DNA of 64,000 nucleotides from Capsulimonadaceae bacterium. Its GTDB lineage: Bacteria; Armatimonadota; Armatimonadia; Armatimonadales; Capsulimonadaceae. The notes under the pieces were generated by a model. It did not search any database, had not been told where the DNA came from, and saw only the letters and a list, made by a program, of their open reading frames with translations. The translations under genes were made by a program, and so were the position numbers. The stretch covers positions 2,592,001-2,656,000 of the forward strand of contig OZ244065.1 in the NCBI GenBank assembly GCA_965215505.1. The letters are read 5' to 3'. Each line of letters begins with the position of its first letter. The stretch's first letter is position 1. Shown here in pieces: positions 4,797 to 44,199 of this stretch.

Positions 4797-4803
4797 ACAG
4801 AAG

Positions 4804-4843
4804 TAGGAGAGGCCGCCGGGGATACTCCCGGCGGCCTCTCCTA
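4804..4843 (+). terminator. Hairpin/terminator after the reductase
   Basis: 17-bp perfect stem TAGGAGAGGCCGCCGGG / CCCGGCGGCCTCTCCTA. Confidence 0.75.
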
Positions 4844-5068
4844 TGCTCAGAAGTAGAGGCTACCTTGCCTTTTCTGACCGGTCTTGTTATAATAGGCCTA
4901 GAGCTATCCTCAGCCCAAAATGTTCAGCATATCGTCTGACATATCGCAGGAAGTACAACAGAACTTTCCTAAGACTTGCGAACAGGTTCAAGCGGGCTGG
5001 TGCGGCTCTTTGGAGCACATTCCAAGCAAGACGTTTCGTAACGGTATATACCCCCGGTGTAACAAATC

Positions 5069-7507
5069 ATGGCTTGGAAATCTCCGTCACAGATCAAGAA
5101 ATTTTTGCAGGAATATGATAAGGCGGGGCGATTAGAACAATTATTCGCCTTGAGCGAGTTCGGGAAGTGGGCGATCTTCCCACTCGATTATGTCGCATCA
5201 CCTCGTTGGGTCGAGTTGGTTGAACTGACAGAAGCGGGGAAAAGCCTGCTCGCCCGAGATCCCGGAATATACGACGATGTCGCAATTGGCGACATATACT
5301 TCGCAATCTTTGGCCTCTTCTATGCCCAAGACATTCTGATTGATGTAGAGGGAAGCGACTTGGAAGGCATAAGGGCCGTTCTAGATGTAGAAGCCCTCAA
5401 AGGCCGGATCAGGTGGCCTTACAGATTTGGGCGTCTTCTCTATAATAAATACAATTCCCAGTTTCCGGAGGGGGAGATCGCTTTTCTTATTTCAGAGCAA
5501 ATTGCTGAGTTTCTGAATGATACTCCTCAAGGTGTCTATCAGATTGGAACGCTCCTATCAGGCCCACTCGGTTTTCTTACAAGCAGAGAGAACAGATTCA
5601 TTCCCCCATCGCTAGAAATGCCTTTATGGCACTGCTCTGACCCAGGATGCTCGCGGTTTCATACAGTGGGCTTTCTCCCACCAAACATAGCACCTGTTGT
5701 TGAAGCATATGCACGTCTGGATGAGGGCGCAAGAAAACTCGGCCCTCCCTCTCCATGGAGATCACAGTTGGCTCGTCTTGGTCGAAAGGATAAAGTAGTC
5801 GAGGCCGATGGTAGGCTTTATGCAGACCTCCCGGCTGTTCTTGGAGGAAACATCGTTGGAGTAGAACGGACGAAGCTATTGGCAAGGGTGCTAAAATCAG
5901 AGCATGCTTCTTGGCTTCGTCAAATCATTGGTGCGCCTCCGCGCCGAAAGCAACAGGCAGAGGGTATTGCCGAAGACGTTGCTTCTAAACTGAGTGAGGC
6001 AGAGCAAGTGCAATTGCTCCTCCTGTTGCCAGACAGTGATTTAGTTACTCAGATTGACCAAGCCATATTCAGCCGCGAAATACCCATCCCTCCTAACGAG
6101 GTAAGGAAATCGGATGCCACACAAGTTGTTTGGCGGAATGACCCTTCAAGTGAGGTTTCTTCATTAGGGATACGCGCAGCAAGGACGCGACCTTTGATCA
6201 CTTTGTTCTCCGTTGTTTGGGAGGCGTATCAGGCGCTCAACCTTGTCGATGAGTTGGATTGGAAGCTTCACAAAGGCCCAGAGAGGTCTTCTCGCGACGC
6301 TTTGGCTAGTTATGTCGAAGGCGCGGGTCCAGCGGCGGCTGTCCGCCAACTCATCATGTCTAGTAAGCCAATCAGCCTAAGGATCAGTGATGAGCTGGGG
6401 TTGGCATTAAATGAGCAGGACGATCCTGATGTATTAGCTGATAGGTTCCTATGGAAATTAGGGTTTAGTCCCTTCCGTTACGACACGGAGTACAGTGTTC
6501 TGCGCGCACGCATGAATCAGTTCCGGGAGACTTTGCTCCAGATAGGAGAAATCAAAAGTGAAGCGAGTCGTGAAGCGATTCGCAGCACCGGGGTAAACCT
6601 TTTTGTATCTGTTGAACATTTTCTAGAACATTTGATTGCCTTCAATATTTGGCTCCTTGTCTCGGACCATTTTCTCAAAACTCGCTTTGTTTACGAAGCA
6701 GAAGCGGCTGTCGCTTCAGTCAGCTCCGCTCTGGAACCAATCAACACCACAGAAGGGCAATCTATCCAGTGGAACAAGAACGGTGGTAACACACTTGGTG
6801 TACTCCTTGCCTATCTGAGCCAGGCTGTGAAGTGGATTGAGGCACTGCCCGAGCGGGAACGGCACCCTTTGGCAAGGGAAGAGCATGATATTCCTAGTTA
6901 CGCCAACAGTAGCGAGCGTGTCTTTCCACTGAAACACTATGAGATGTGGGCGGATAGCGACTCAAGAGAGTTATCGCTTTTTGCACACGGCTTCAAGACA
7001 GTAGCGAATCAGCTTTCCAGAGCCAATCTTGCATCCATAAGGAACGGCCTTGACCACCATCGTTCAGAGGATGCCTTTCCAACAGCGGAAGGCATGATTG
7101 CTTGTGTGACTTGGCTGAAAGACGGTTTGGACTATGCTGACCTACATCGCTACATCCCAAAAACGTTTTGGCTTCAGTCGCGCAGTGAGGATCAATTTGG
7201 AGGACGGCAATACATGTTGCAAGATTATTTAGACCGCCCACTAGCATTACGAGGACCATCGATATTGACTGGAGTGCCGCTCGCGACATTCAACAAGCCT
7301 CTAATAATCGCGCCTGGAAATCTTCTCGGCTTACCAAATGCAGAACTGAAGTTTCGTGTAGAAGATCGTAGCGCGTTCTCTAAATATTGGGAGGGTTTCC
7401 CACTTAGGCGTCAAGTAGAAAAGAAAGGTTCTGATCCAGACGAAAACCTGGATAACACGCCTCTAGTGAACGATGCGGAGGCAGGGGATTTGGTTCAACC
7501 TGTTTAG
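5069..7507 (+). CDS. Low-GC 812-aa protein, putative HEPN-domain defence protein
   Basis: Long intact ORF with much lower GC than its flanks (line 5401-5460 is 27/60 GC). R-X4-H motif IRNGLDH near the C-terminus; HCSDPGCSRFH metal-binding-like motif. Function is inference. Confidence 0.6.
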   Translation: MAWKSPSQIKKFLQEYDKAGRLEQLFALSEFGKWAIFPLDYVASPRWVELVELTEAGKSLLARDPGIYDDVAIGDIYFAIFGLFYAQDILIDVEGSDLEGIRAVLDVEALKGRIRWPYRFGRLLYNKYNSQFPEGEIAFLISEQIAEFLNDTPQGVYQIGTLLSGPLGFLTSRENRFIPPSLEMPLWHCSDPGCSRFHTVGFLPPNIAPVVEAYARLDEGARKLGPPSPWRSQLARLGRKDKVVEADGRLYADLPAVLGGNIVGVERTKLLARVLKSEHASWLRQIIGAPPRRKQQAEGIAEDVASKLSEAEQVQLLLLLPDSDLVTQIDQAIFSREIPIPPNEVRKSDATQVVWRNDPSSEVSSLGIRAARTRPLITLFSVVWEAYQALNLVDELDWKLHKGPERSSRDALASYVEGAGPAAAVRQLIMSSKPISLRISDELGLALNEQDDPDVLADRFLWKLGFSPFRYDTEYSVLRARMNQFRETLLQIGEIKSEASREAIRSTGVNLFVSVEHFLEHLIAFNIWLLVSDHFLKTRFVYEAEAAVASVSSALEPINTTEGQSIQWNKNGGNTLGVLLAYLSQAVKWIEALPERERHPLAREEHDIPSYANSSERVFPLKHYEMWADSDSRELSLFAHGFKTVANQLSRANLASIRNGLDHHRSEDAFPTAEGMIACVTWLKDGLDYADLHRYIPKTFWLQSRSEDQFGGRQYMLQDYLDRPLALRGPSILTGVPLATFNKPLIIAPGNLLGLPNAELKFRVEDRSAFSKYWEGFPLRRQVEKKGSDPDENLDNTPLVNDAEAGDLVQPV

Positions 7508-7626
7508 CAGGGCGGTTCTTCGCAACATACCCGCAATGAAAGATCGTATGATGGTTTACTCACTGTTATCAATTTGTGCAAGCAGTTATAACTACGGATA
7601 AATCAGTGAGAGTGCCATACGCTCGC

Positions 7627-7676
7627 ACCTGCCGACCTCGGCCCAGGGCGCGGGCGTGACGACGTGGCGGTGAGTT
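7627..7676 (+). repeat. Direct repeat copy 2: displaced reductase 3' end
   Basis: Encodes LPTSAQGAGVTTWR*; differences from copy 1 are mostly synonymous. Confidence 0.9.
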
Positions 7677-7683
7677 GATCCAC

Positions 7684-7714
7684 AAAGGGCGGGCCTTACG
7701 GCTCGCCCTTTTTT
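7684..7714 (+). terminator. Intrinsic terminator after the displaced 3' end
   Basis: AAAGGGCGGGCC-TTAC-GGCTCGCCCTTT followed by a T-run. Confidence 0.75.
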
Positions 7715-7743
7715 GTTGCCAGCCTTCGGGTAGAATACGCGCT

Positions 7744-8826
7744 ATGAAACTCGATAAGCTGACCATTCGCGGCTACAAGTCCATCAAAGAGTTGAAAGAC
7801 TTTGAGCTCCGCAACCTGAACGTACTCATCGGTGCAAATGGCGCGGGCAAGAGCAACCTCCTGAGCCTCTTCCGCTTGTTAAATGCGATAGCGGAAGGCA
7901 ATTTGCAGGTGTATATCCAAAAGCAAGGCGGGCCGGATGCGCTGCTGTTCGGCGGGCGCAAGCGCACAGCACAACTGGATGCTCTGTTCTACTTTGGTGA
8001 CAATGGGTATTGGATTAGGCTGGCTGCCACTGCCGATAACCGCCTTATCTTTGAGCGCGAAGAAACACTATTCAAAGGGAAGATGAACCAAGTGAGTTAT
8101 CCACCCCTGGCTGGCTATCCAGAGGCATGGCTGCTGAACAATCTCACACCCGAAAGCCAGTCTGTCCGTCCCCCTTTGCAGCGCTGGCGGCTGTATCACT
8201 TCCAAGATGCAAGCGACGCAGCGGCAGTCAAGCAGCCCCACCCGAGTAATGACAACCTGCGATTGAAACCCGACGCAGCTAACCTTGCGGCGTTCCTGGC
8301 AAGCCTCCGCGCGGGCTTCCCAAGCGAATACAGGCGAATCGTAGAAACCATCCGGCTGGCTGCGCCGTTCTTCGGCGATTTCGTGATCCGCGACCCGCTG
8401 CCGCCGACTGTGGAACTGGAATGGACCGAGCGTGGAGACCCGGACACCCCCTACCGCGCCCATGTGCTGTCCGACGGCACCCTGCGCTTTATCTGCCTGA
8501 CGACCCTGCTGCTCCAGCCCCTCGCCCTGCGCCCCGACACGATCCTCATAGATGAGCCGGAGCTGGGACTGCACCCTTACGCCATCAACCTGCTGGCCGA
8601 GATGCTGAAACAAGCCTCCGCCGACAAACAGGTCATCGTCTCCACGCAGTCCGTCGAACTGCTCAACAACTTCACGCCCGAAGACGTGATCGTGGCGGAC
8701 CGTGAGGACGGCGCTTCTGTCTTCAAGCGGTTGGATGCGGATGAGTTAAAAGACTGGCTGGAAGACTACACCCTGGGCGAGTTGTGGAAGAAGAACATTC
8801 TGGGCGGGAGGCCGACGCGCACATGA
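7744..8826 (+). CDS. ABC/AAA_21 family ATPase
   Basis: IRGYKSIK, LIGANGAGKSN (Walker A), LSDGTLRF, ILIDEPELGLHP, VIVSTQS. Start taken at ATG 7744. Confidence 0.92.
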   Translation: MKLDKLTIRGYKSIKELKDFELRNLNVLIGANGAGKSNLLSLFRLLNAIAEGNLQVYIQKQGGPDALLFGGRKRTAQLDALFYFGDNGYWIRLAATADNRLIFEREETLFKGKMNQVSYPPLAGYPEAWLLNNLTPESQSVRPPLQRWRLYHFQDASDAAAVKQPHPSNDNLRLKPDAANLAAFLASLRAGFPSEYRRIVETIRLAAPFFGDFVIRDPLPPTVELEWTERGDPDTPYRAHVLSDGTLRFICLTTLLLQPLALRPDTILIDEPELGLHPYAINLLAEMLKQASADKQVIVSTQSVELLNNFTPEDVIVADREDGASVFKRLDADELKDWLEDYTLGELWKKNILGGRPTRT

Positions 8827-32913: not shown

Positions 32914-33809
32914 TCATGCCTTTCTGGGCTTGGGTTTGAGCCTACGGACCATCAGGTGACACATCGCCAGGCGGATCATCGCCTCGCTGCTCTCGGTCAG
33001 GAACTCGTAGTCGCGCACCAGGCGGCGGTACTTGCACAGCCACGCGAACGTGCGCTCCACGATCCAGCGGTGCGGCTGAACCGCGAAGCCCTTGACGTCC
33101 TTTTGGTCTTCGGACTTCCTGACGATCTCCAGCGTCCAGCCGTAGGACGATCTCCAGCGTCCAGCCGTAGGACGATCTCCAGCGTCCAGCCGTAGGACGA
33201 TCTCCAGCGTCCAGCCGTAGCAGGAGGCGACCCAGTCCACCAACTCGCCCCCGTAGGCGGCGTCCGCCCACACCACAGACAGGCGCGGGTAGGTGCCCTT
33301 GCAGTAGGAGAGCACTTCTTTGGCCCCGTCACGGTCCTGCACATCGCCCGCCTGGACGGAGACGGCCAGCAGGAAGCCCTGCGTGTCCACCATCAGGTGC
33401 CGCCTGCGGCCCTTGATCTTCTTGTTGGCATCATAGCCGAGGGTGCCAGGCGGCCCCCTTTTTCGCCCGCCTTGACCGTCTGGCTGTCCAGGACGGCGGC
33501 GGACGGGCTGGCCTCGCGGCCCTGCTGCTTGCGGGCCTGGTCGCGCAGGTTGTCGTGCAGGCACTCGATGGTGCCGTCGTCGCGCCATCTGCGGAACTGG
33601 TCATAGACCGTGGCCCAGGGCGGCAGATCGTGGGGCAGATCGCGCCAGGGGCAGCCCGTCCGCAGTTGGTAGAACAGGCCGTTGACGACTTCGCGCAGCG
33701 GGTGCTTGCGGCGTCGGCCCGTGCGCCCGTTGCGGGCTTTGGGCAGGCACTCTTGTAGCTTCTGCCACTGGTCGTCGGTCAGGTCGGTAGAATAGGCTCG
33801 GCGTTCCAT
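32914..33809 (-). CDS. IS5 transposase in two frames joined at an A5G5 slippery site
   Basis: YSTDLTDDQW, RTGCPWRDLP, AVLDSQTVK; then GYDANKKIKGRRRHLMVDTQG, WADAAY, RWIVERTFAWL. AAAAAGGGGG at 33454-33463 (minus strand). Confidence 0.9.
33121..33220. repeat. Tandem repeat, 25-bp unit x4, inside the transposase
   Basis: GACGATCTCCAGCGTCCAGCCGTAG four perfect copies. Confidence 0.97.
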
Positions 33810-33933
33810 AACTACAGTGTACTTGAACGACCAAGACTTTTTCAACATACTCTTAGAATCATCCCATTCCCTTGTCCCCTGGACAAATCCTGCCATAGCG
33901 AGTGATTTCAATCACTCGTCCTCATGTCTCCAG

Positions 33934-35372: not shown

Positions 35373-36200
35373 TTGGAACCGAAGCACCCCACCCCTTTAG
35401 ACGACTTCCTATTTGACCTGAACGGCTACCTCATCCTGAGAAACGCCGTCGAGCCGGCCCTGGTGTCTGACCTGAACCGCGCGTTTGACGACTTCCCGCC
35501 GCTCCAGCCGATGGAGTGGTGGGGGAACACGCAGCGGCGCGACTATACCGCCGAAACCGGCTTCGAGCTGCACAACTGCGTCGAGGCCGGTGCCCCGTTC
35601 GAGGCGCTGATCGACCACCCCGGCTGGGTGAGCCATGTCCGGCGGTACTGCGGGGAGCAGGACTCCTACGTCGAGGGCCTGTTTATCGATGAAACCATCG
35701 CCTCCATCCGCCGGTCCGGGGGGCATCACCCCGTCCACTCGGGCGGCTACAAGGGCGCGCTGCGCGGGGCCTACCATTTCAAGGACGGCGAGTTCCGGTG
35801 CGGCCAGTGCAACGTCATCCTCGCCCTCACCGACATCGGGGAGGGCGACGGGCCGACGATGGTGGTCCCCGGCAGCCACAAGTCCAACTTCCCCCACCCG
35901 CTGGCGGGCGACTACGAGCGCGGCGACCGCATGGACGACCTGCCGGGCGCGGTCCCCGTCTACCTCAGCAAAGGCGACGCCGTGCTGTTCTGCGACGGCC
36001 TGATGCACGGCGGCAGCAGCCGGACTCGGGAGGGCGGCGAGCGGCGCGTCACGATCTACCGCTACGGGCCGGTCTGGGGCGCGACCCGCTTCGGCTATGA
36101 GTATTCCCCCGCCCTGCTTGCCCGGCTGACACCCGAGCGACGCCGCATCTTGCAGCCCGTGGTCCCTGCCCGACCGCCTGCCTCCCAAAAAAGCGCTTGA
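35373..36200 (+). CDS. Phytanoyl-CoA dioxygenase (PhyH) family Fe/2OG enzyme
   Basis: FDLNGYLIL, VHSG, GPTMVVPGSHKS, GDAVLF..LMHG; TTG start after GGAG. Confidence 0.85.
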   Translation: MEPKHPTPLDDFLFDLNGYLILRNAVEPALVSDLNRAFDDFPPLQPMEWWGNTQRRDYTAETGFELHNCVEAGAPFEALIDHPGWVSHVRRYCGEQDSYVEGLFIDETIASIRRSGGHHPVHSGGYKGALRGAYHFKDGEFRCGQCNVILALTDIGEGDGPTMVVPGSHKSNFPHPLAGDYERGDRMDDLPGAVPVYLSKGDAVLFCDGLMHGGSSRTREGGERRVTIYRYGPVWGATRFGYEYSPALLARLTPERRRILQPVVPARPPASQKSA

Positions 36201-36225
36201 CTTTTCGCCGGGCCTGTGTTACCAT
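36186..36225 (+). promoter_or_regulatory. Promoter / direct repeat copy 1 overlapping the phyH stop codon
   Basis: TTGACT-N17-TACCAT with TG extension; 36186-36221 is 34/36 identical to 39556-39591. Confidence 0.85.
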
Positions 36226-36260
36226 GGTAGCAGTCGCCACAAACAAGCCGGGTCGAAGTC

Positions 36261-38255
36261 GTGCCGCAAGGAAAATGTCATGTCGCCTTGTCCGCTGCCG
36301 TCCGCCGTGCCGCCCTGCTGTGTGTCTTTTTTGCTGCCACCTTCGCGTCCGGCACCATCCTCTCTCCACATGCTTCCGCGCAACAGCCCGGCGGCGGTGG
36401 ATCGCCGGGCGGTGGCAGCTCCCCCGACGGATCTGCCGCCGGCTGGGTCCCACAGCCCCGCCCCGGCGTGACCGATCCTCAGTCATACGGTGACTACGAC
36501 TGGACCGGCCTTGATGGCAGCGTCATCCGCACCCCCTTCACCGGATCATACCCGCCGGAGATTTACCACGACTACGGCGGCAGTGAAGGCTTCAGCACCG
36601 GCGGCAGCTACTTCATGGAGTACCCCTTCAACGGCACCGGCGGGACCGGCAATACGCTCGCCGAGGTCTACACCCAGTTCAGCGGGACGACCACCTACAA
36701 GTGGAAGTGGGTGCCGCCCAACAACGCGGCGGGCCAGCCCGACACAGCGAACTTCCCCGCCCCGACCTTGTTCACGCTTTACGACATGTATGCGACGCTC
36801 GGGACGCAGTTGTGGAGTCCGCCCTACAACGCGGGCTTGGCGGCTTCGGGGACCGTTTCGGATGGCGCTCCCGACAATTGGACTTCCTCGGTGTCTACGG
36901 TGCCGCAGGTAATCACGGATGTCTTCCCGCGCCAGATGGTGCTGCCCGGCTCGGCCCCGGACTCTGGAGGCGTTTCCTCGGTGGCGATGGCACTCTCGGG
37001 GAACCTTGACGTGACGGGGAAGCAGTCGGTGGTGGTGGGCGGGTACACGGGGACGGGTGCCATGTGCATCAGCGCGACGACCGTGAACGGCCAGGCCTAC
37101 CCCATCACGCTGGCCGCCCCCGACCCTCTGACCAACCCCCTGCTGGGTGATGGCACCAACCAGTATGTCTACGATACGGAGCAGCCTGACGGCTACCTTG
37201 CGGTCCCCGCCTCCGTAAGCGTCCCCGGCGCGGGAACCGCCGACACAGCCTTCCTCCTGCCGCACGTCGCGCTCTCCGTCGCCCCCGCCATGCAGACGGG
37301 GGCGCAGCCCTTCCAGTGGACGAACTCCGGCTCCCAGATGTACGTCTACACGTCGGGCAGCTATCCAAGCGGCACCAGCTACCCCTCGGCGGCCTTCGTC
37401 TACAAGGGCCTGCCGCCCAATAACAGCTACTTCGGCAACCACACCATGACCATGAAGGTAGACGGCACGGTTTCGCAGACGGCCAACTACCAGTTGTTTT
37501 TCAACGCCACCACTAACAACTATCCAGGGGCGTTAGAATATGATAATCAAGGTGCCCTGAGCTACACCGGAATCCCGGATTGGTACTTCTATTATAACCA
37601 AGTGTATCCCGCGCCTGGTGGCTACAAGATGGGAAAAAGTTCCGAATATAATCCTGACGCCAATACGATTGACATATCAGATGACGCTCACGGCGTCTAC
37701 ACAATGCGTATCTTTCACCTTAATTCTTCTACGAACAAGGTTGAATATCTCGGTTCTTTGTCACTGGCTGGGCTTCATACCTACATAGAAGTCATTGGGC
37801 ACGAGTTAGGGCACAAGTATGCGGCAAACCACAACATAGAAGTTTCTAACTCAACTGCATCTCACCCTGATCACGACAACGACGGTTTGGATGACAACTG
37901 GGAACTATTGAATGGTTTCGATCCTAATAAATCTGACACTACCGGGGCCTATGCCAACATACCTTCGACCGACGCAGACTTCGGAAAAGGTGATCGCGAG
38001 TGCGTTGCGGATATACAAGCTTTGGGGGCATTGTTAACGCCTACAGCATCGGGTACCGTCAAGAGCCTTTGGAAACAGGATTGGGCGAACGATGGCTCAC
38101 AGTGGGGTACATGGAATCAGCATACTCCAGCCCTAAATCCCTCTGCGCCTTATTGGCCCTGGTACTTCGCTTCATCGGTTAATGGAGCGAGAGCAGCCGA
38201 CCCACCTTCTGATGCATTGTCAAAACTAACTCAATTACCGAACAATGGTAACTGA
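36261..38255 (+). CDS. Secreted protein with C-terminal HEXXH metallopeptidase and Ca-binding (TSP3-like) motif; polymorphic-toxin-like
   Basis: Signal peptide ending ASA; VIGHELGHK; DHDNDGLDDNWELLNGFDPNKSDT; GC falls sharply near 37510. Confidence 0.65.
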   Translation: MPQGKCHVALSAAVRRAALLCVFFAATFASGTILSPHASAQQPGGGGSPGGGSSPDGSAAGWVPQPRPGVTDPQSYGDYDWTGLDGSVIRTPFTGSYPPEIYHDYGGSEGFSTGGSYFMEYPFNGTGGTGNTLAEVYTQFSGTTTYKWKWVPPNNAAGQPDTANFPAPTLFTLYDMYATLGTQLWSPPYNAGLAASGTVSDGAPDNWTSSVSTVPQVITDVFPRQMVLPGSAPDSGGVSSVAMALSGNLDVTGKQSVVVGGYTGTGAMCISATTVNGQAYPITLAAPDPLTNPLLGDGTNQYVYDTEQPDGYLAVPASVSVPGAGTADTAFLLPHVALSVAPAMQTGAQPFQWTNSGSQMYVYTSGSYPSGTSYPSAAFVYKGLPPNNSYFGNHTMTMKVDGTVSQTANYQLFFNATTNNYPGALEYDNQGALSYTGIPDWYFYYNQVYPAPGGYKMGKSSEYNPDANTIDISDDAHGVYTMRIFHLNSSTNKVEYLGSLSLAGLHTYIEVIGHELGHKYAANHNIEVSNSTASHPDHDNDGLDDNWELLNGFDPNKSDTTGAYANIPSTDADFGKGDRECVADIQALGALLTPTASGTVKSLWKQDWANDGSQWGTWNQHTPALNPSAPYWPWYFASSVNGARAADPPSDALSKLTQLPNNGN

Positions 38256-38289
38256 GTACAGCCTTCTGAGACGCCAGAAAAGCACAACT

Positions 38290-39366
38290 ATGAAACTCTT
38301 AACGGCTTTCTTTTCTATCGTTGGCATTTGTGGATTCTTCCTAGTGATGTCTGTCATGCAGGCAGTACCAATGCCAGGAGCCAGACTCGCCCCAGCACAA
38401 GTGCCAGATCTCTCAGCCCGACTCTTCGGTTCCTCTGCGCCGGTGAAACAATGGAGATATTCCTCCGCGAAACCTGCTGCTCCCTCGTCGCCGGATGAAT
38501 ACGATTATTTAGCAGGCATCCGAGTGGCGGGATTAAATAGGGACTCATCTCGCTTGGCTGATATGGTTGCCTGTTTGAAAAGCACTGACCCAGCTTCTGT
38601 TGCCACTGGCTTACACGCGCTCGCGCACCTGGGAGATGAGCGGGCCATACCTGATGTGGAACAGGTCGTACAAAACTACCCTGCCGGATACATACGCGCG
38701 GAGGCTAAATCAGCACGCGCGAGGCTACTTGCAGAATCTACAGGTCGGAGCCTTACTATACCCGGTGATCGCGCGGGTGTGAAAACAACAAAGTTCATGT
38801 CTGAGGAGGGGATAGACGCCACTATACTCAACGCGGGGGTTTTGGCCTACTATAGTTCATCCGGTGAAGGTCAAGGATTGCCCCATGAAGTAGACTCCTT
38901 GCGGGAACTCGCGGATATGGCATATCGGGAACCTGATGCCGACTATCTGGCCCTGCCACTGCTACAGAAGATAAACTTCAGCCAAGACCCCGGTTCGACC
39001 CTAAAGATCAAACTGGCGGTCATGCCGAAAGCAGCCAGAGTCCCCTGGATGATTAACGAACTAGCGCATAAGACCATCCTCCACAAAGAGGATGCATTAT
39101 TGACTCAACTAGCGGTCGATGAAGGCACATCGTCTAGCCAGCAAGTCGCCATCAAGTTAACAGAAATGGATGCTCAAAGGGACCAGTATACATACACTGG
39201 ATTTTCAGCGCTATTTGATGTTTTACGCGGCATAGGGGATAGCCGGCAGGCACCAACTGTTGAGCATTTCCTAAACGACAAAGACACCTGGGTGGCTTAC
39301 TATGCACAACAGGTTTATCCAGACGTAAAAAGAGGGCTACGTCGGCAGTATGCCATTGGCTACTGA
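38290..39366 (+). CDS. Exported HEAT-like repeat protein, candidate cognate immunity/inhibitor
   Basis: Signal/TM MKLLTAFFSIVGICGFFLVMSVMQA; ALAHLGDERAIPDV and LRGIGDSRQAPTVEHFLNDKDTWVAYYA; low GC like the upstream C-terminus. Confidence 0.6.
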   Translation: MKLLTAFFSIVGICGFFLVMSVMQAVPMPGARLAPAQVPDLSARLFGSSAPVKQWRYSSAKPAAPSSPDEYDYLAGIRVAGLNRDSSRLADMVACLKSTDPASVATGLHALAHLGDERAIPDVEQVVQNYPAGYIRAEAKSARARLLAESTGRSLTIPGDRAGVKTTKFMSEEGIDATILNAGVLAYYSSSGEGQGLPHEVDSLRELADMAYREPDADYLALPLLQKINFSQDPGSTLKIKLAVMPKAARVPWMINELAHKTILHKEDALLTQLAVDEGTSSSQQVAIKLTEMDAQRDQYTYTGFSALFDVLRGIGDSRQAPTVEHFLNDKDTWVAYYAQQVYPDVKRGLRRQYAIGY

Positions 39367-39555
39367 TGGAACGCCCTCCGGAATAGTGTCTTACCGCTCC
39401 GTAGAAGCCATTCGCCGTGTCTAACGGGGCAGGCACTATGATAACCCATAAACTTCTACAGAGCGCTCAACACCCTCTAGCCTCCTCCCTGACAGCAACC
39501 ACCTCGACAATCGAAAGATGCGGAAATCCTACGGAACACGAAGAGCAAAGCGGCA

Positions 39556-39595
39556 CAAAAAACTGCTTGACTTTTCGCCGGGCCTGTGTTAAAGT
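39556..39595 (+). promoter_or_regulatory. Promoter / direct repeat copy 2
   Basis: Same 27-bp core GCTTGACTTTTCGCCGGGCCTGTGTTA with -10 TAAAGT. Confidence 0.85.
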
Positions 39596-39716
39596 AGGGG
39601 AACACCGAATTCCGGCCATGAACTCCGGCCCCGAACCTGCCGAACACACAACCCACCGACGTGTCATAAACCGTTCACGCGCTATGGCCCGATCCCCCTT
39701 GCCTGGAGGCGTTTGC

Positions 39717-41628: not shown

Positions 41629-41658
41629 CTTTGAGGCCTGGGTGATTTGAGGCCCCCC

Positions 41659-44199
41659 GTGAACCGCTGCTGCCGAGTCCTTGCGGTCATTACCATCTTG
41701 CTGGCCCTTCTCCTGCCTGACGCCCCCTGCCGGGCGCAGAAGACGGGCGCGCTCCAGAAGGCCGGGTGGCGTCTCACCTTCGATGACGAGTTCTCGGGGT
41801 CCGCCCTGGACACGCGCAAGTGGACGGCAAGCGAAGGCACCTTCGAGAATCGCTCCGCGCCGATCCAGTACTTCCTGCCGTCCGAGGTGAGCGTCGCGCA
41901 GGGACACCTCACCCTCACCAGCGAGCAGCGTTCCAGCCACGGGTACGGGTACACGTCGGGCGAGATTCGCACCCTGGACAAGTTCTGCCAGCTCTACGGC
42001 CGGCTCGAAGTCCGCTGCCGCTTCCCCACCGTGCCGGGCGTTTGGCCCGCCGTCTATTTGCTCCCGGCGGACGACAGTTGGCCGCCGGAGATCGACGTCG
42101 CCGAGTTCATCGGGCGCACCCCCGATAAGGTCTATCTGACGAACCACTGGCTGGACGGCTACGGCGCACACAAGCAGATGAACTGTGACTGGGCGGACCC
42201 GGCCACCGACTGGGGGGCCTGGCACACCTACGCCACCGAGTGGCAGCCGGGCGGCGTCCGCTGGTATGTTGACGGCGTCCTGCGCGGCACGGACCTGGGG
42301 CCGGTGTCCAGGGTGCCGATGTACATCCGCGTGAACCTCATGGTCGGCGGCGACTTCGCGGGCATCCCGCAGCCGGGCGCGTGGCCGCAGACGTTCGCGC
42401 TGGACTATGTCCGCATGTACCAGCGCAAGGGCGGACCCGCGCCCATTCTGAGGCCGGTCCCCCGCTTCGTGCCGCCCCCGCCGCCGCCTTCATATTCCCC
42501 ACCGCCACCCGAGCCGGCACCCGTCGATGATCAGGGCGGGGAGGGCGGGACGGACGGCTGGGGCCTCTTCTTCCTGCTGGCCCCCCCGCTCCTGGTCTGG
42601 TGGTGGATGGGGGGGTTGGTGGGGTCGCGGGCGGCGCGGACGGCCGCCCTGGCGTCGGGCGTGTGGGTGAGCGCGGGGGGCTACCTGCTGTTCCGGATCC
42701 AGGTCATCCACTGGGCGGCCTGGTGGATCGCGCTGCCGCTGCTCCTCGCCGAGATGCACGGGCTGCTGCACACCCTGGGGCTGCAATACACGCTCTGGCC
42801 GCGCCCGGCCCCGGTGGTTCATGCCGAGCAAGACCCTTCCCTGCGGCCCGTCTTCATCCTCATCCCCACCGTGAACGAAGGCCCGGACGTGCTGGGGCTG
42901 ACGGTGGAGGGCGCGCTGCGGACCCGCGCCCATTACCTCGAACGCTTCCCCGAAGCGCGGGTCACGGTCGTCGTCTGCAACGACGGGTATGTGGCGGGTT
43001 ACCCGGAGTGGTACGCCGCCGAGAAGCTGGCGGAGCGGCTCGGCGTGGTCTGCGTCACCCGCGCGGTCGGGGGCGGCGCGAAGGCGGGCAACATCGAGTG
43101 GGCGCGGCAGACGGTGGGGGCGGTCGGGGATGCGCTCATTGTCCTGTTCGACGCCGACCAGGTCGCCGAGGAAGACTTCCTGGCGCAGACGGCCCTCCCC
43201 TTCGCGGACCCGTCCATCGGCTGGGTGCAGACCGGCCAGTATTACCGCAACCTGGAGAACCCGGTCGCGCGCTGGGCCAACGACCAGCAGGGCCTGTTCT
43301 ACCAGGTCCTCTGCCCCGGCAAGGCGGCCCTGAACGCGGCATTCATCTGCGGCACGAACGTCATGCTGCGGGCCGAGGCGCTGGACGAGATCGGCGGGCT
43401 GCCGCAGGACTCGGTGACGGAGGATTTCGCCGCCTCACTCCAACTTCACCCGCGCTGGCGCAGCCTGTTTCTGCCAGACGTGCTGGCGCAGGGCCTGGGG
43501 CCGATGGACCTGAAATCCTACTTCGCCCAGCAGGGCCGCTGGGCGACCGGGACCTTGGGCGTCCTGCGCCGACACTGGCGGATGCTGCTCCTGCCGGGCA
43601 AGGGTGGCCTGAGCCTGCCCCAGCGCGTCCAATACGGGCTGGCCTGCACCCACTATCTGTCGGGCCTGCGCGACCTGGTCTACCTGCTGGTGCCGTTCCT
43701 CTTCCTGCTCCTGGGCGTTTCGGCCCTGCGCGGCGCGGACATGCCGACATTCCTGGGCCGCTTCCTGCCCTACTTCGTGTTCTCCCAGGTCGCCTTCTGG
43801 CACGCCGCCGCGCGCAAGACGACCTGGCGCGGGCTGGTCCTGAGCTTCGGCAGCTTTCCGGTCCTGCTGGCGAGCCTGATGCTGGTCGTTCTGGGCCAGA
43901 AGACGCGCTTCGCGATCACCCCCAAGCGCCGCAGCGGGGTCCGGGCAAGCCCCCCGCTGCTGCCACAAATCCTGGCCGGGGCCGCCTGCCTGGTCGGCTT
44001 GGTCATGGCCGCCGCCTCGCCCGAGGACAAGACCCTGGTCCTGCTGAGTGCGCTCTGGCTGCTCGTCATGCTGCTGATGCTGGCGGGCGTGCTGTGGCTG
44101 GGATTACAGGACCGTCGAGAGGAAAAGGGCATTCGCATCGGTTTAGAGGCTGGTGGCGAACCTCATCGGGGCGAGGGGGTGGGAAGAGACGAGGTTTGA
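41659..44199 (+). CDS. GH16 glycoside hydrolase fused to GT2 processive (cellulose-synthase-like) glycosyltransferase
   Basis: FDDEFSG, YTSGEI, WPPEIDVAE, WHTYATEW; Pro linker; TM helices; AKAGN, FDAD, VQTGQ, VTEDF, QQGRW. Confidence 0.88.
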   Translation: MNRCCRVLAVITILLALLLPDAPCRAQKTGALQKAGWRLTFDDEFSGSALDTRKWTASEGTFENRSAPIQYFLPSEVSVAQGHLTLTSEQRSSHGYGYTSGEIRTLDKFCQLYGRLEVRCRFPTVPGVWPAVYLLPADDSWPPEIDVAEFIGRTPDKVYLTNHWLDGYGAHKQMNCDWADPATDWGAWHTYATEWQPGGVRWYVDGVLRGTDLGPVSRVPMYIRVNLMVGGDFAGIPQPGAWPQTFALDYVRMYQRKGGPAPILRPVPRFVPPPPPPSYSPPPPEPAPVDDQGGEGGTDGWGLFFLLAPPLLVWWWMGGLVGSRAARTAALASGVWVSAGGYLLFRIQVIHWAAWWIALPLLLAEMHGLLHTLGLQYTLWPRPAPVVHAEQDPSLRPVFILIPTVNEGPDVLGLTVEGALRTRAHYLERFPEARVTVVVCNDGYVAGYPEWYAAEKLAERLGVVCVTRAVGGGAKAGNIEWARQTVGAVGDALIVLFDADQVAEEDFLAQTALPFADPSIGWVQTGQYYRNLENPVARWANDQQGLFYQVLCPGKAALNAAFICGTNVMLRAEALDEIGGLPQDSVTEDFAASLQLHPRWRSLFLPDVLAQGLGPMDLKSYFAQQGRWATGTLGVLRRHWRMLLLPGKGGLSLPQRVQYGLACTHYLSGLRDLVYLLVPFLFLLLGVSALRGADMPTFLGRFLPYFVFSQVAFWHAAARKTTWRGLVLSFGSFPVLLASLMLVVLGQKTRFAITPKRRSGVRASPPLLPQILAGAACLVGLVMAAASPEDKTLVLLSALWLLVMLLMLAGVLWLGLQDRREEKGIRIGLEAGGEPHRGEGVGRDEV

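Follow-up and report, generated by a model that had tools for sequence, protein, structure and literature searches.

A gene pair of Armatimonadota best explained as a small, horizontally exchanged operon for an exported zincin-like protein and its HEAT-repeat partner

Two adjacent genes in a Capsulimonadaceae bacterium, called A and B here, invite comparison with two kinds of described system: polymorphic toxins with their immunity proteins, and operons that join a protease to its inhibitor. The pair lies within a 64,000-nucleotide stretch of contig OZ244065.1 (the window; coordinates are positions in it), and both genes and all of their parts are on the + strand. The open-reading-frame (ORF) listing places A at 36261–38255 (664 amino acids, aa) and B at 38245–39366 (373 aa). 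Among polymorphic toxin systems, MafB/MafI and SitA/SitI are exported by a plain signal peptide. At Rhs and CdiA loci, a drop in GC content sets in partway through the large gene and extends across the immunity gene, with a conserved stretch upstream as the crossover point. On the side of the proteases, AprA is a serralysin that leaves the cell through a dedicated type I exporter. The polymorphic toxin catalogue of Zhang et al. (2012) includes, in the excerpts used here, signal-peptide export, HExxH toxin domains, HEAT immunity proteins and homogeneous polyimmunity loci; in the same excerpts, HEAT immunity proteins are paired with a toxin of the restriction-endonuclease fold, not with a peptidase (PMC3482391).

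Protease–inhibitor operons offer a second point of reference. In Serratia proteamaculans, the genes for the zinc metalloprotease protealysin and its inhibitor emfourin share one operon, which the authors liken to toxin–immunity pairs (PMC9505478). Unlike A, protealysin is an intracellular, thermolysin-like enzyme of the M4 family; emfourin is not described as a HEAT-repeat protein in the available portion of that paper, which likewise describes neither module swapping nor arrays (PMC9505478). The gene neighboring that of the secreted metalloprotease AprA encodes AprI, a periplasmic high-affinity inhibitor that, according to the part of the source consulted, is thought to protect the producer (PMC4070987). 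Here, in contrast, B would be a HEAT solenoid of ~330 aa, and A and B both use N-terminal signals. As excerpted, the report on Listeria describes a secreted metzincin together with a TIMP-like lipoprotein, a putative exported inhibitor, at a locus derived from a mobile element; the protease family and the inhibitor fold differ from those of A and B, and the setting is a phage remnant with XRE regulators (PMC8235301). If B inhibits A, these operons are functional analogues of the A–B pair that use different folds.

The observations presented below are best explained if A and B constitute a small, horizontally exchanged operon. The two genes appear to represent an uncharacterized family of zincin-like proteins with HEAT-repeat partners, and its population genetics resemble those of toxins and their immunity genes. 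Judged by its ORF and its homologues, A is an exported modular protein with a zincin-like HExxH domain at its end; translation might instead start at an in-frame TTG (36288). The predicted Sec signal peptide (aa 1–40, 36261–36380) has a hydrophobic core and an A-S-A site followed by Q, the export signals of A and B having been read from the sequence by hydropathy and an AxA scan. A signal-like N-terminal segment is present in 9 of the 16 aligned members of the A family, and six of the remaining seven begin well inside the alignment; P0016 begins near the N-terminal end of the alignment, yet by hydropathy it has no hydrophobic segment. Beyond the signal lies a variable, beta-rich N-terminal region (aa 41–280, 36381–37100) with the native GC content at third codon positions (GC3, 0.81). 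It is delimited by low identity and by a structural model whose beta strands are of low confidence and whose Foldseek matches are weak and jelly-roll or lectin-like, and it includes the stretch of lowest identity in the family (aa 160–270, 5–30% in most rows). The central region that follows (aa 281–420, 37101–37520) is the best-conserved part of the family and has the motifs PITLAAP, GDGTNQYVYD and GLPPNNSYFGNH. Sliding identity is 60–85% in most rows over aa 281–400, most invariant columns of the alignment fall within this region, and it is the part common to A-like proteins of distant phyla.

The C-terminal zincin-like domain (C-domain; aa 430–664, 37548–38252, GC3 0.48), which is moderately conserved, was delimited by invariant residues and by a domain model. 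It contains HELGH (37800–37814), DHDNDG, which resembles a calcium site (37869–37886), DTTGAY (37935–37952) and QDWA (38076–38087). All 26 C-domain sequences share seven invariant residues: H514, E515, H518, D541, D578, D607 and W608. Modeled alone, the domain reaches a predicted local distance difference test score (pLDDT) of 79 and a predicted template-modeling score of 0.77, with HELGH in a helix at model residues 76–94 (aa 505–523). The full-length model of A is poor (mean pLDDT 57.5), and its Foldseek matches are weak beta-sandwiches (TM ≤0.41). Candidate third zinc ligands in the C-domain are D541, E548, D559 and D578. The metzincin signature HExxHxxGxxH is not conserved: A of the window has H at the third position, and this column varies among homologues. 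As a side observation, A proteins often carry L-x-x-L-P a few residues before the stop (38210–38252 in the window).

Gene B (38245–39366, GC3 0.50) is predicted to encode a HEAT-repeat protein that is exported or anchored in the membrane, 373 aa long from the first ATG; a likelier start is M16 at 38290, 35 nucleotides (nt) past the stop of A. It matches HEAT_2 (PF13646) over aa 81–156 with 31.0 bits against a cut-off of 27.7 (E 3e-7), and its neighbors in the Atlas are HEAT clusters (score 0.91). A hydrophobic N-terminal segment is found in 21 of 26 members of the B family. The C-terminal G-Y is conserved (39355–39366 in the window), with 22 of 26 rows ending in Y or F; either this ending or the L-x-x-L-P of A could be a contact or sorting signal.

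Composition sets part of the pair apart from its surroundings. In 300-nt windows, GC content is 0.64–0.69 up to ~37450, 0.45–0.55 up to ~39650 and at least 0.68 thereafter; on a 2-kb scale, just one further stretch of the 64-kb window (~4800–8300) is this low. The effect is concentrated at third codon positions, GC3 being 0.81–0.88 at aa 1–400 of A, 0.48 at aa 431–664 and 0.50 in B, with values of 0.83–0.93 in neighboring genes (n = 3). The step falls at ~nt 37520, where 30-codon windows pass from 87% (aa 391–420) to 50% (aa 421–450); these windows and the contigs of metagenome run X7, described below, define a zone at 37521–37547 that is both the GC3 switch and one recombination junction. A low-GC, non-coding tail, recognized by window composition, occupies 39367–39555, and a tblastn search of 39367–39716 turned up no trace of a displaced A or B gene (all matches E ≥ 0.05). 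These results bear out what the first-pass annotation of this DNA, made by a model from the letters and their ORFs, had described: a fall in GC inside ORF A near 37510 that stays low through the next gene, for which its counts of 44/60 at 37081–37140 and 27/60 at 37681–37740 are exact; HELGH and a DxDxDG motif in the low-GC part (aa 514–518 and, as DHDNDG, aa 537–542); and an exported, HEAT-like product of the next gene. A one-off swap in this genome is not what the drop reflects. A drop in GC and GC3 from the C-terminal part of A through B, between high-GC flanks, is also present in G011, G021, G013, G017a and G016, that is, in five of the six other homologous pairs profiled, and is not clear in the sixth, G054. 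The step is therefore not the scar of a single transfer into this genome, in which A and B each have a single match and thus no second copy. Rather, the module made up of the C-domain and B seems to hold a foreign composition at each of its sites, which fits frequent horizontal exchange.

Comparison of the separate parts of A and B among homologues shows that they have been inherited as modules. The homologue P0002 is 88–100% identical to A over aa 1–330 and 18–57% identical from aa 341 onward, a sliding window from aa 321 being at 65%; P0004 is 10–48% identical up to aa 420 and 65–95% identical from aa 441. The closest relative of B is P0026 (73%); as its contig equals that of P0004 in length (46264), the two probably lie on one contig. 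With the window's own pair denoted G000, pairwise identity between G000 and P0004/P0026 is 40% in the central region, 82% in the C-domain and 80% in B, and the corresponding values between G000 and G011 are 72%, 38% and 41%. Likewise, the tree of the central region groups G000 with P0002 and P0009 (support 96), and that of the C-domain groups it with P0004 (96). An approximately unbiased (AU) test on the C-domain columns rejects the grouping of G000 with P0002 and P0009 (p = 0.0013), and the reverse comparison gives a borderline p = 0.06; the trees had already been seen when the two groups were named.

Metagenome contigs of runs X6, X7 and X4 lend independent support to modular inheritance. 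A contig of run X7 matches 37574–39593 with 2 differences (99.9%) and its 716 nt upstream do not fit, and another contig of this run matches 36149–37506 with 114 differences (91.6%) and stops at 37506. Run X6 yields 37133–38892 with 7 differences (99.6%), the 468 nt just upstream having 48 (89.7%). A contig of run X4 matches 36581–39591 with 54 differences and, among the differences listed, all lie between 36243 and 37085. Collectively, the C-domain and B form one low-GC3 module that recombines onto different N-terminal and central parts. The breakpoints, at ~aa 295, 335 and 416–440, all fall within the conserved central region or at its border.

This picture preserves one half of what had been proposed for the locus and replaces the other. 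The C-terminal part and its partner are indeed an exchangeable module, as the sliding identity, the discordant trees, the AU test and the metagenome contigs agree; the junction, which had been set at aa ~415, is not fixed. The module had also been expected to carry different toxin domains in different genomes, and this is not what the homologues show. Those aligned are collinear, 15 of 16 share the HExxH domain (the 16th is cut before it), all 26 C-domain sequences are homologous, and the variation among them is allelic (18–57% identity). Since every C-terminus is one homologous zincin-like domain, unrelated toxin folds are not swapped. The two findings named beforehand as telling against C-terminal exchange, collinear homologues and an absence of swapping, thus separate: the homologues are collinear, and swapping is seen.

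The cassette is polymorphic in its presence. A repeat search and a promoter-like scan found a 36-nt direct repeat bounding it, the two copies agreeing at 34 of 36 positions. The left copy (36186–36221) provides the −35 box and spacer of a sigma-70-like promoter reading into A (TTGACT-17-TACCAT, 36197–36225), and the right copy (39556–39591) provides those of the native promoter of the downstream gene (TTGACT-17-TAAAGT, 39567–39595); each copy thus comprises a −35 box with a 17-nt spacer and is followed by its own −10 box. The 26-nt core of the repeat occurs exactly twice in the 6.18-Mb genome (0/100 shuffles). G011 lacks the cassette: there the same two flanking genes lie side by side with a single copy of the promoter repeat between them, and their identity to those of the window is 87% for the PhyH gene and 79% for the Big_7/Cu_amine_oxidN1 gene. 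This empty, one-copy site implies that a 3.3-kb A–B unit, its high-GC N-terminal part included, was either inserted into that promoter with duplication of the repeat or deleted between the repeats in G011. The join expected of an empty site (36221 to 39592) was found in none of the contigs of four runs, which is uninformative because contigs drop rare variants. Other genomes carry the pair amid unrelated housekeeping genes: GDH/6PGD/G6PD, VWA/PAP2, FlgK/FlgL/FliW and MreB. The interval between the PhyH and Big_7 genes was considered as an insertion hot spot and rejected, its counterpart in G012 holding an ordinary glycoside hydrolase and a PhyH gene of native GC. An IS4/IS5-type transposase in two overlapping ORFs (DUF4096, then DDE_Tnp_1; 32914–33911, − strand) is situated ~2.3 kb upstream of the cassette and is not adjacent to it.

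Linkage between the two genes extends well beyond this genome, as had been predicted for homologues of A. Among 60 relatives, A is present in 8 genomes and B in all 8 of these, directly downstream on the same strand in seven; in the eighth, the contig ends inside A. The distribution of A is patchy (7 of the 23 genomes of the genus), and B occurs without detectable A in 4 of the 60 relatives, whose assemblies are 75–92% complete. In a wider set of 401 genomes of the phylum, the A profile matches 33 and the B profile 48, many weak B matches being generic HEAT stretches. There, 20 of the 23 strong A places (E ≤ 1e-20), spread over eight families, are followed within 1.3 kb by a B match on the same strand, a count obtained by reading the match tables of the two profiles side by side. 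Two or more copies of B follow one A at seven loci, and in G018 six tandem copies stand behind an A split into three ORFs. In the B tree these copies are not monophyletic; the fourth groups with the B genes of G017 and G021 (95/90). The G018 locus (contig C28, 3497–11418) has its three overlapping A ORFs and six divergent B genes directly after FlgK, FlgL and FliW. Orphan B genes of G007 (contig C367) and G004 (contig C50) cluster in the tree, and that of G007 adjoins a PhyH homologue on the opposite strand. In distant phyla, a same-strand ORF lies downstream of the A-like gene at 11 of 11 loci, most of these ORFs having an N-terminal hydrophobic stretch by eye. At one of them, on a contig labeled Pontiella (1036–2715), two paralogous exported ORFs of 272 and 260 aa stand in tandem behind the distant A-like gene; a Pfam search gave no match for them, and they may represent a different partner family in the position of B.

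The family itself is large and appears undescribed, as the first-pass annotation had supposed: searches of Pfam, NCBIfam, PADLOC and PDB sequences give A no family name. In a Pfam-A scan at E ≤ 0.1, A has two sub-threshold matches, Reprolysin_2 (16.2 bits, cut-off 27) and TSP3_bac (14 bits, cut-off 25), and none to the toxin metallopeptidase families (Tox-MPTase1–5, HopH1 and lethal-factor-like). NCBIfam returns for A a single 14-bit CglD match on the calcium-site motif, the PADLOC anti-phage models give 0 families for A and 0 for B (E ≤ 0.1), and a search of PDB sequences with the C-domain profile gives 0 matches at E ≤ 1. An Atlas search with the C-domain, whose best score is 0.75, is uninformative, and a literature search, which did not extend to supplementary files, found nothing on the A family or on toxin systems in Armatimonadota. 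A word-index search returned 24 homologues of A, five of them covering 92–98% of it, and the A profile matched 816 of 1.84 billion representatives at E ≤ 1e-3 (132 at E ≤ 1e-30), the best matches being mostly full-length and collinear with A. The core of the family is in Armatimonadota (Capsulimonadaceae-like); distant A-like genes come from Verrucomicrobiota, Kiritimatiellia, Acidobacteriota, Planctomycetota and Lentisphaerae. Longer relatives carry N-terminal fn3, Ig-like or CARDB-like extensions. Some homologues are far longer than A (1092 aa in G016) or stand behind large ORFs with weak W_rich_C and PepSY matches (L031, 1610–5649; L011, 1321–4599), and this variety of lengths and upstream ORFs suggests alternative N-terminal architectures.

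It is informative to set these features beside those of the polymorphic toxins. As in the excerpts of the catalogue, A has an N-terminal signal peptide (an AxA site followed by Q in the window), a variable and presumably enzymatic C-terminal part and a small partner gene immediately downstream, the C-terminal part and partner are exchanged by recombination, and the partner occurs in arrays and as orphans (PMC3482391). With B downstream at 20 of 23 places, seven loci with multiple B genes and the orphans, the correspondence of B to an immunity gene is one of position alone. A of the window contains no RHS, FilH, MafB-N, PAAR, LXG or TPS domain by Pfam scan, and the annotation's statement that RHS, CDI, LXG and MafB features are absent agrees with that scan at E ≤ 0.1. 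The resemblance to Rhs and CdiA lies in a composition drop that starts inside A and continues through B, and in a conserved stretch upstream of the variable part. The A–B locus differs from them in having no Rhs/YD or hemagglutinin repeats and no type V or type VI secretion genes nearby; moreover, A is much shorter, and its conserved stretch is a domain of ~140 aa that may be part of the enzyme.

What do A and B do? From sequence, we infer that A would leave the cell and act on a target by proteolysis, and that B would bind and inhibit it, the two being a cognate peptidase–inhibitor pair that works in the manner of a toxin and its immunity protein; we give this an even chance of being right. 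A would be exported by its signal peptide. Its C-domain would be zinc-peptidase-like, with HExxH, invariant acidic residues and a calcium site of the thrombospondin-type-3 kind. B would be exported or anchored by its N-terminal hydrophobic segment, and that segment would place its HEAT-repeat body in the same compartment as A. There, B would bind and block the C-domain of its own A, protecting the envelope of the producer while A is made and released; if so, C-domain and B must be inherited together. The low-GC3 module of the two would move between genomes, with the conserved central region as the zone of homologous crossover, and extra B copies, in arrays or as orphans, would protect against the A variants of neighbors. 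This proposal draws on the catalytic motif, the predicted extracytoplasmic location of both products, the tight operon and the matched inheritance of C-domain and B, and also on the additional and orphan B genes, the near absence of A without B, and the patchy, mobile distribution of the pair. Purifying selection on the central part of A, its C-domain and B, and HEAT_2 matches above the Pfam cut-off behind distant A-like genes of Verrucomicrobiia and Sedimentisphaerales, also count in its favor.

Several observations weigh against a cognate pair of this kind. Across 55 pairs, the identity of B correlates better with that of the central region (Spearman 0.57) than with that of the C-domain (0.30). 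Recombination takes place within the part that distant phyla also conserve and, as the central region and the HExxH domain co-occur in distant members, the central region may be a component of the enzyme rather than of a delivery part. The C-termini of the family are one homologous domain varying allelically, so that the diversity of unrelated domains that defines polymorphic toxins fails here. No secretion-system, lysis or mobility gene is found next to the pair in the five flank contexts checked; with no secretion or lysis gene adjoining, release of A from a diderm cell is unexplained. Three of the 23 strong A places have no nearby B match (G274, G089 on contig C59, and G175), G274 having one on another contig of its 1060-contig assembly. 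At the 11 distant loci, the hidden Markov model of B matches none of the downstream ORFs by HMMER, and Pfam HEAT_2 is passed by only two (Verrucomicrobiia and Sedimentisphaerales), with one more weak; hhalign of the B profile against them gives one marginal match (L040, E 3.8e-4, probability 36). The orphan B genes of G004 and G007, with ORF starts as taken, have no hydrophobic N-terminus. VIA-align finds weak structural matches for the C-domain (best Z 3.9), many of those listed being to zincin peptidases, and the domain model has no Foldseek match in the PDB at E ≤ 1e-3; the domain is therefore called zincin-like by its motif, its fold being unconfirmed. Finally, gene-wide positive selection is not seen in the single measurable pair, the orthologues of G013 and G017a with available DNA. 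In this pair, the ratio of nonsynonymous to synonymous substitution rates is 0.12 in the central part of A, 0.21 in the C-domain and 0.19 in B (flanking genes 0.13–0.30), which indicates purifying selection on all three, and 0.57 in the poorly aligned N-terminal stretch of A.

Much of this evidence would also suit other explanations. A secreted protease with a self-protecting inhibitor need not be an interbacterial weapon at all: it could be an exoprotease for feeding, for matrix turnover or for attack on eukaryotes. The same linkage of A and B, the same export signals and the same catalytic motif would then be expected, no delivery machinery is nearby, and the fn3, Ig-like or CARDB-like N-terminal domains of the longer members are typical of secreted enzymes. 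Protease–inhibitor operons are moreover documented, as the excerpts cited above attest (PMC4070987, PMC9505478). We nonetheless consider an exoprotease of this sort unlikely, as it leaves unexplained both the divergent tandem arrays and orphan genes of B and the exchange of C-domain and B as a module of foreign composition.

Alternatively, B could be a helper of A, whether as a substrate adaptor, as an export or folding chaperone or as an anchor in the membrane that keeps A at the cell surface, and the pair an ordinary envelope enzyme. HEAT and TPR scaffolds often recruit substrates, a tight operon and co-inheritance suit any obligate complex, and the purifying selection on both parts of A and on B, like the correlation of B with the central region, would be natural under such an arrangement. 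However, B genes without A in 4 of 60 relatives and arrays of up to six behind a broken A make little sense for an adaptor of one enzyme, and a pair confined to 7 of 23 genomes of the genus, with the cassette at different sites, does not look like a core envelope function; a helper role for B thus strikes us as rather improbable too. Less probable still, by a clear step, is a recognition system in which the variable C-domain and B are matched surface labels for kin discrimination or adhesion and HExxH is structural. Allelic diversity with matched partners and two products read from their signals as extracytoplasmic would accord with it, but the invariance of H, E and H in 26 of 26 sequences, together with that of D541, D578, D607 and W608, argues for catalysis. 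That the break in GC stems from a chimeric assembly, or from one recent transfer ending by chance in the gene, and has no functional meaning, was suggested by the sharp switch of composition within an ORF and is already contradicted: the frame is intact and collinear with full-length homologues, five of the six other genomes profiled show the GC3 drop at this point of the gene, and a contig from another sample of the same study, which may not be independent of the source, matches 36074–39594 with 0 differences.

We hesitate to carry the cognate-pair explanation much further. In its widest form, the pair would be a widespread, undescribed, Sec-exported module for antagonism or kin discrimination in Armatimonadota and the PVC group, in which zincin and HEAT immunity alleles are matched, a conserved central domain is the crossover handle for swapping the targeting N-terminal part and the toxin–immunity module, and HEAT arrays counter the alleles of neighbors; this remains an attractive but doubtful possibility.

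Two other regions of the window deserve brief mention. The second low-GC stretch (5069–8826; 2-kb GC ~0.50 at ~4800–8300) holds an ORF of 812 aa with no Pfam match and a 383-aa ORF for an AAA_21/AbiEii-like ATPase, and may be a defence island. The low-GC ORF at 5069–7507 was considered as a relative of A and is unrelated (hhalign E 0.85). Downstream of the cassette, at 41647–44199 (+), an 850-aa ORF combines an N-terminal GH16/SKN1-like glucanase with a family-2 glycosyltransferase of the cellulose-synthase-like type and has membrane segments.

The locus illustrates that, besides single transfers, standing recombination boundaries can show as a GC3 step within a gene. In a phylum as little studied as Armatimonadota, the pair would bring with it, should B prove to be the cognate inhibitor of A, a new peptidase family, with 816 representatives at E ≤ 1e-3, and a new family of protein inhibitors. 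In that case it would also extend the logic of toxin and immunity to a case in which one catalytic fold diversifies allelically and no dedicated injection machine is involved, and the many alleles would make up a natural set of matched enzyme–inhibitor pairs in which specificity could be studied.

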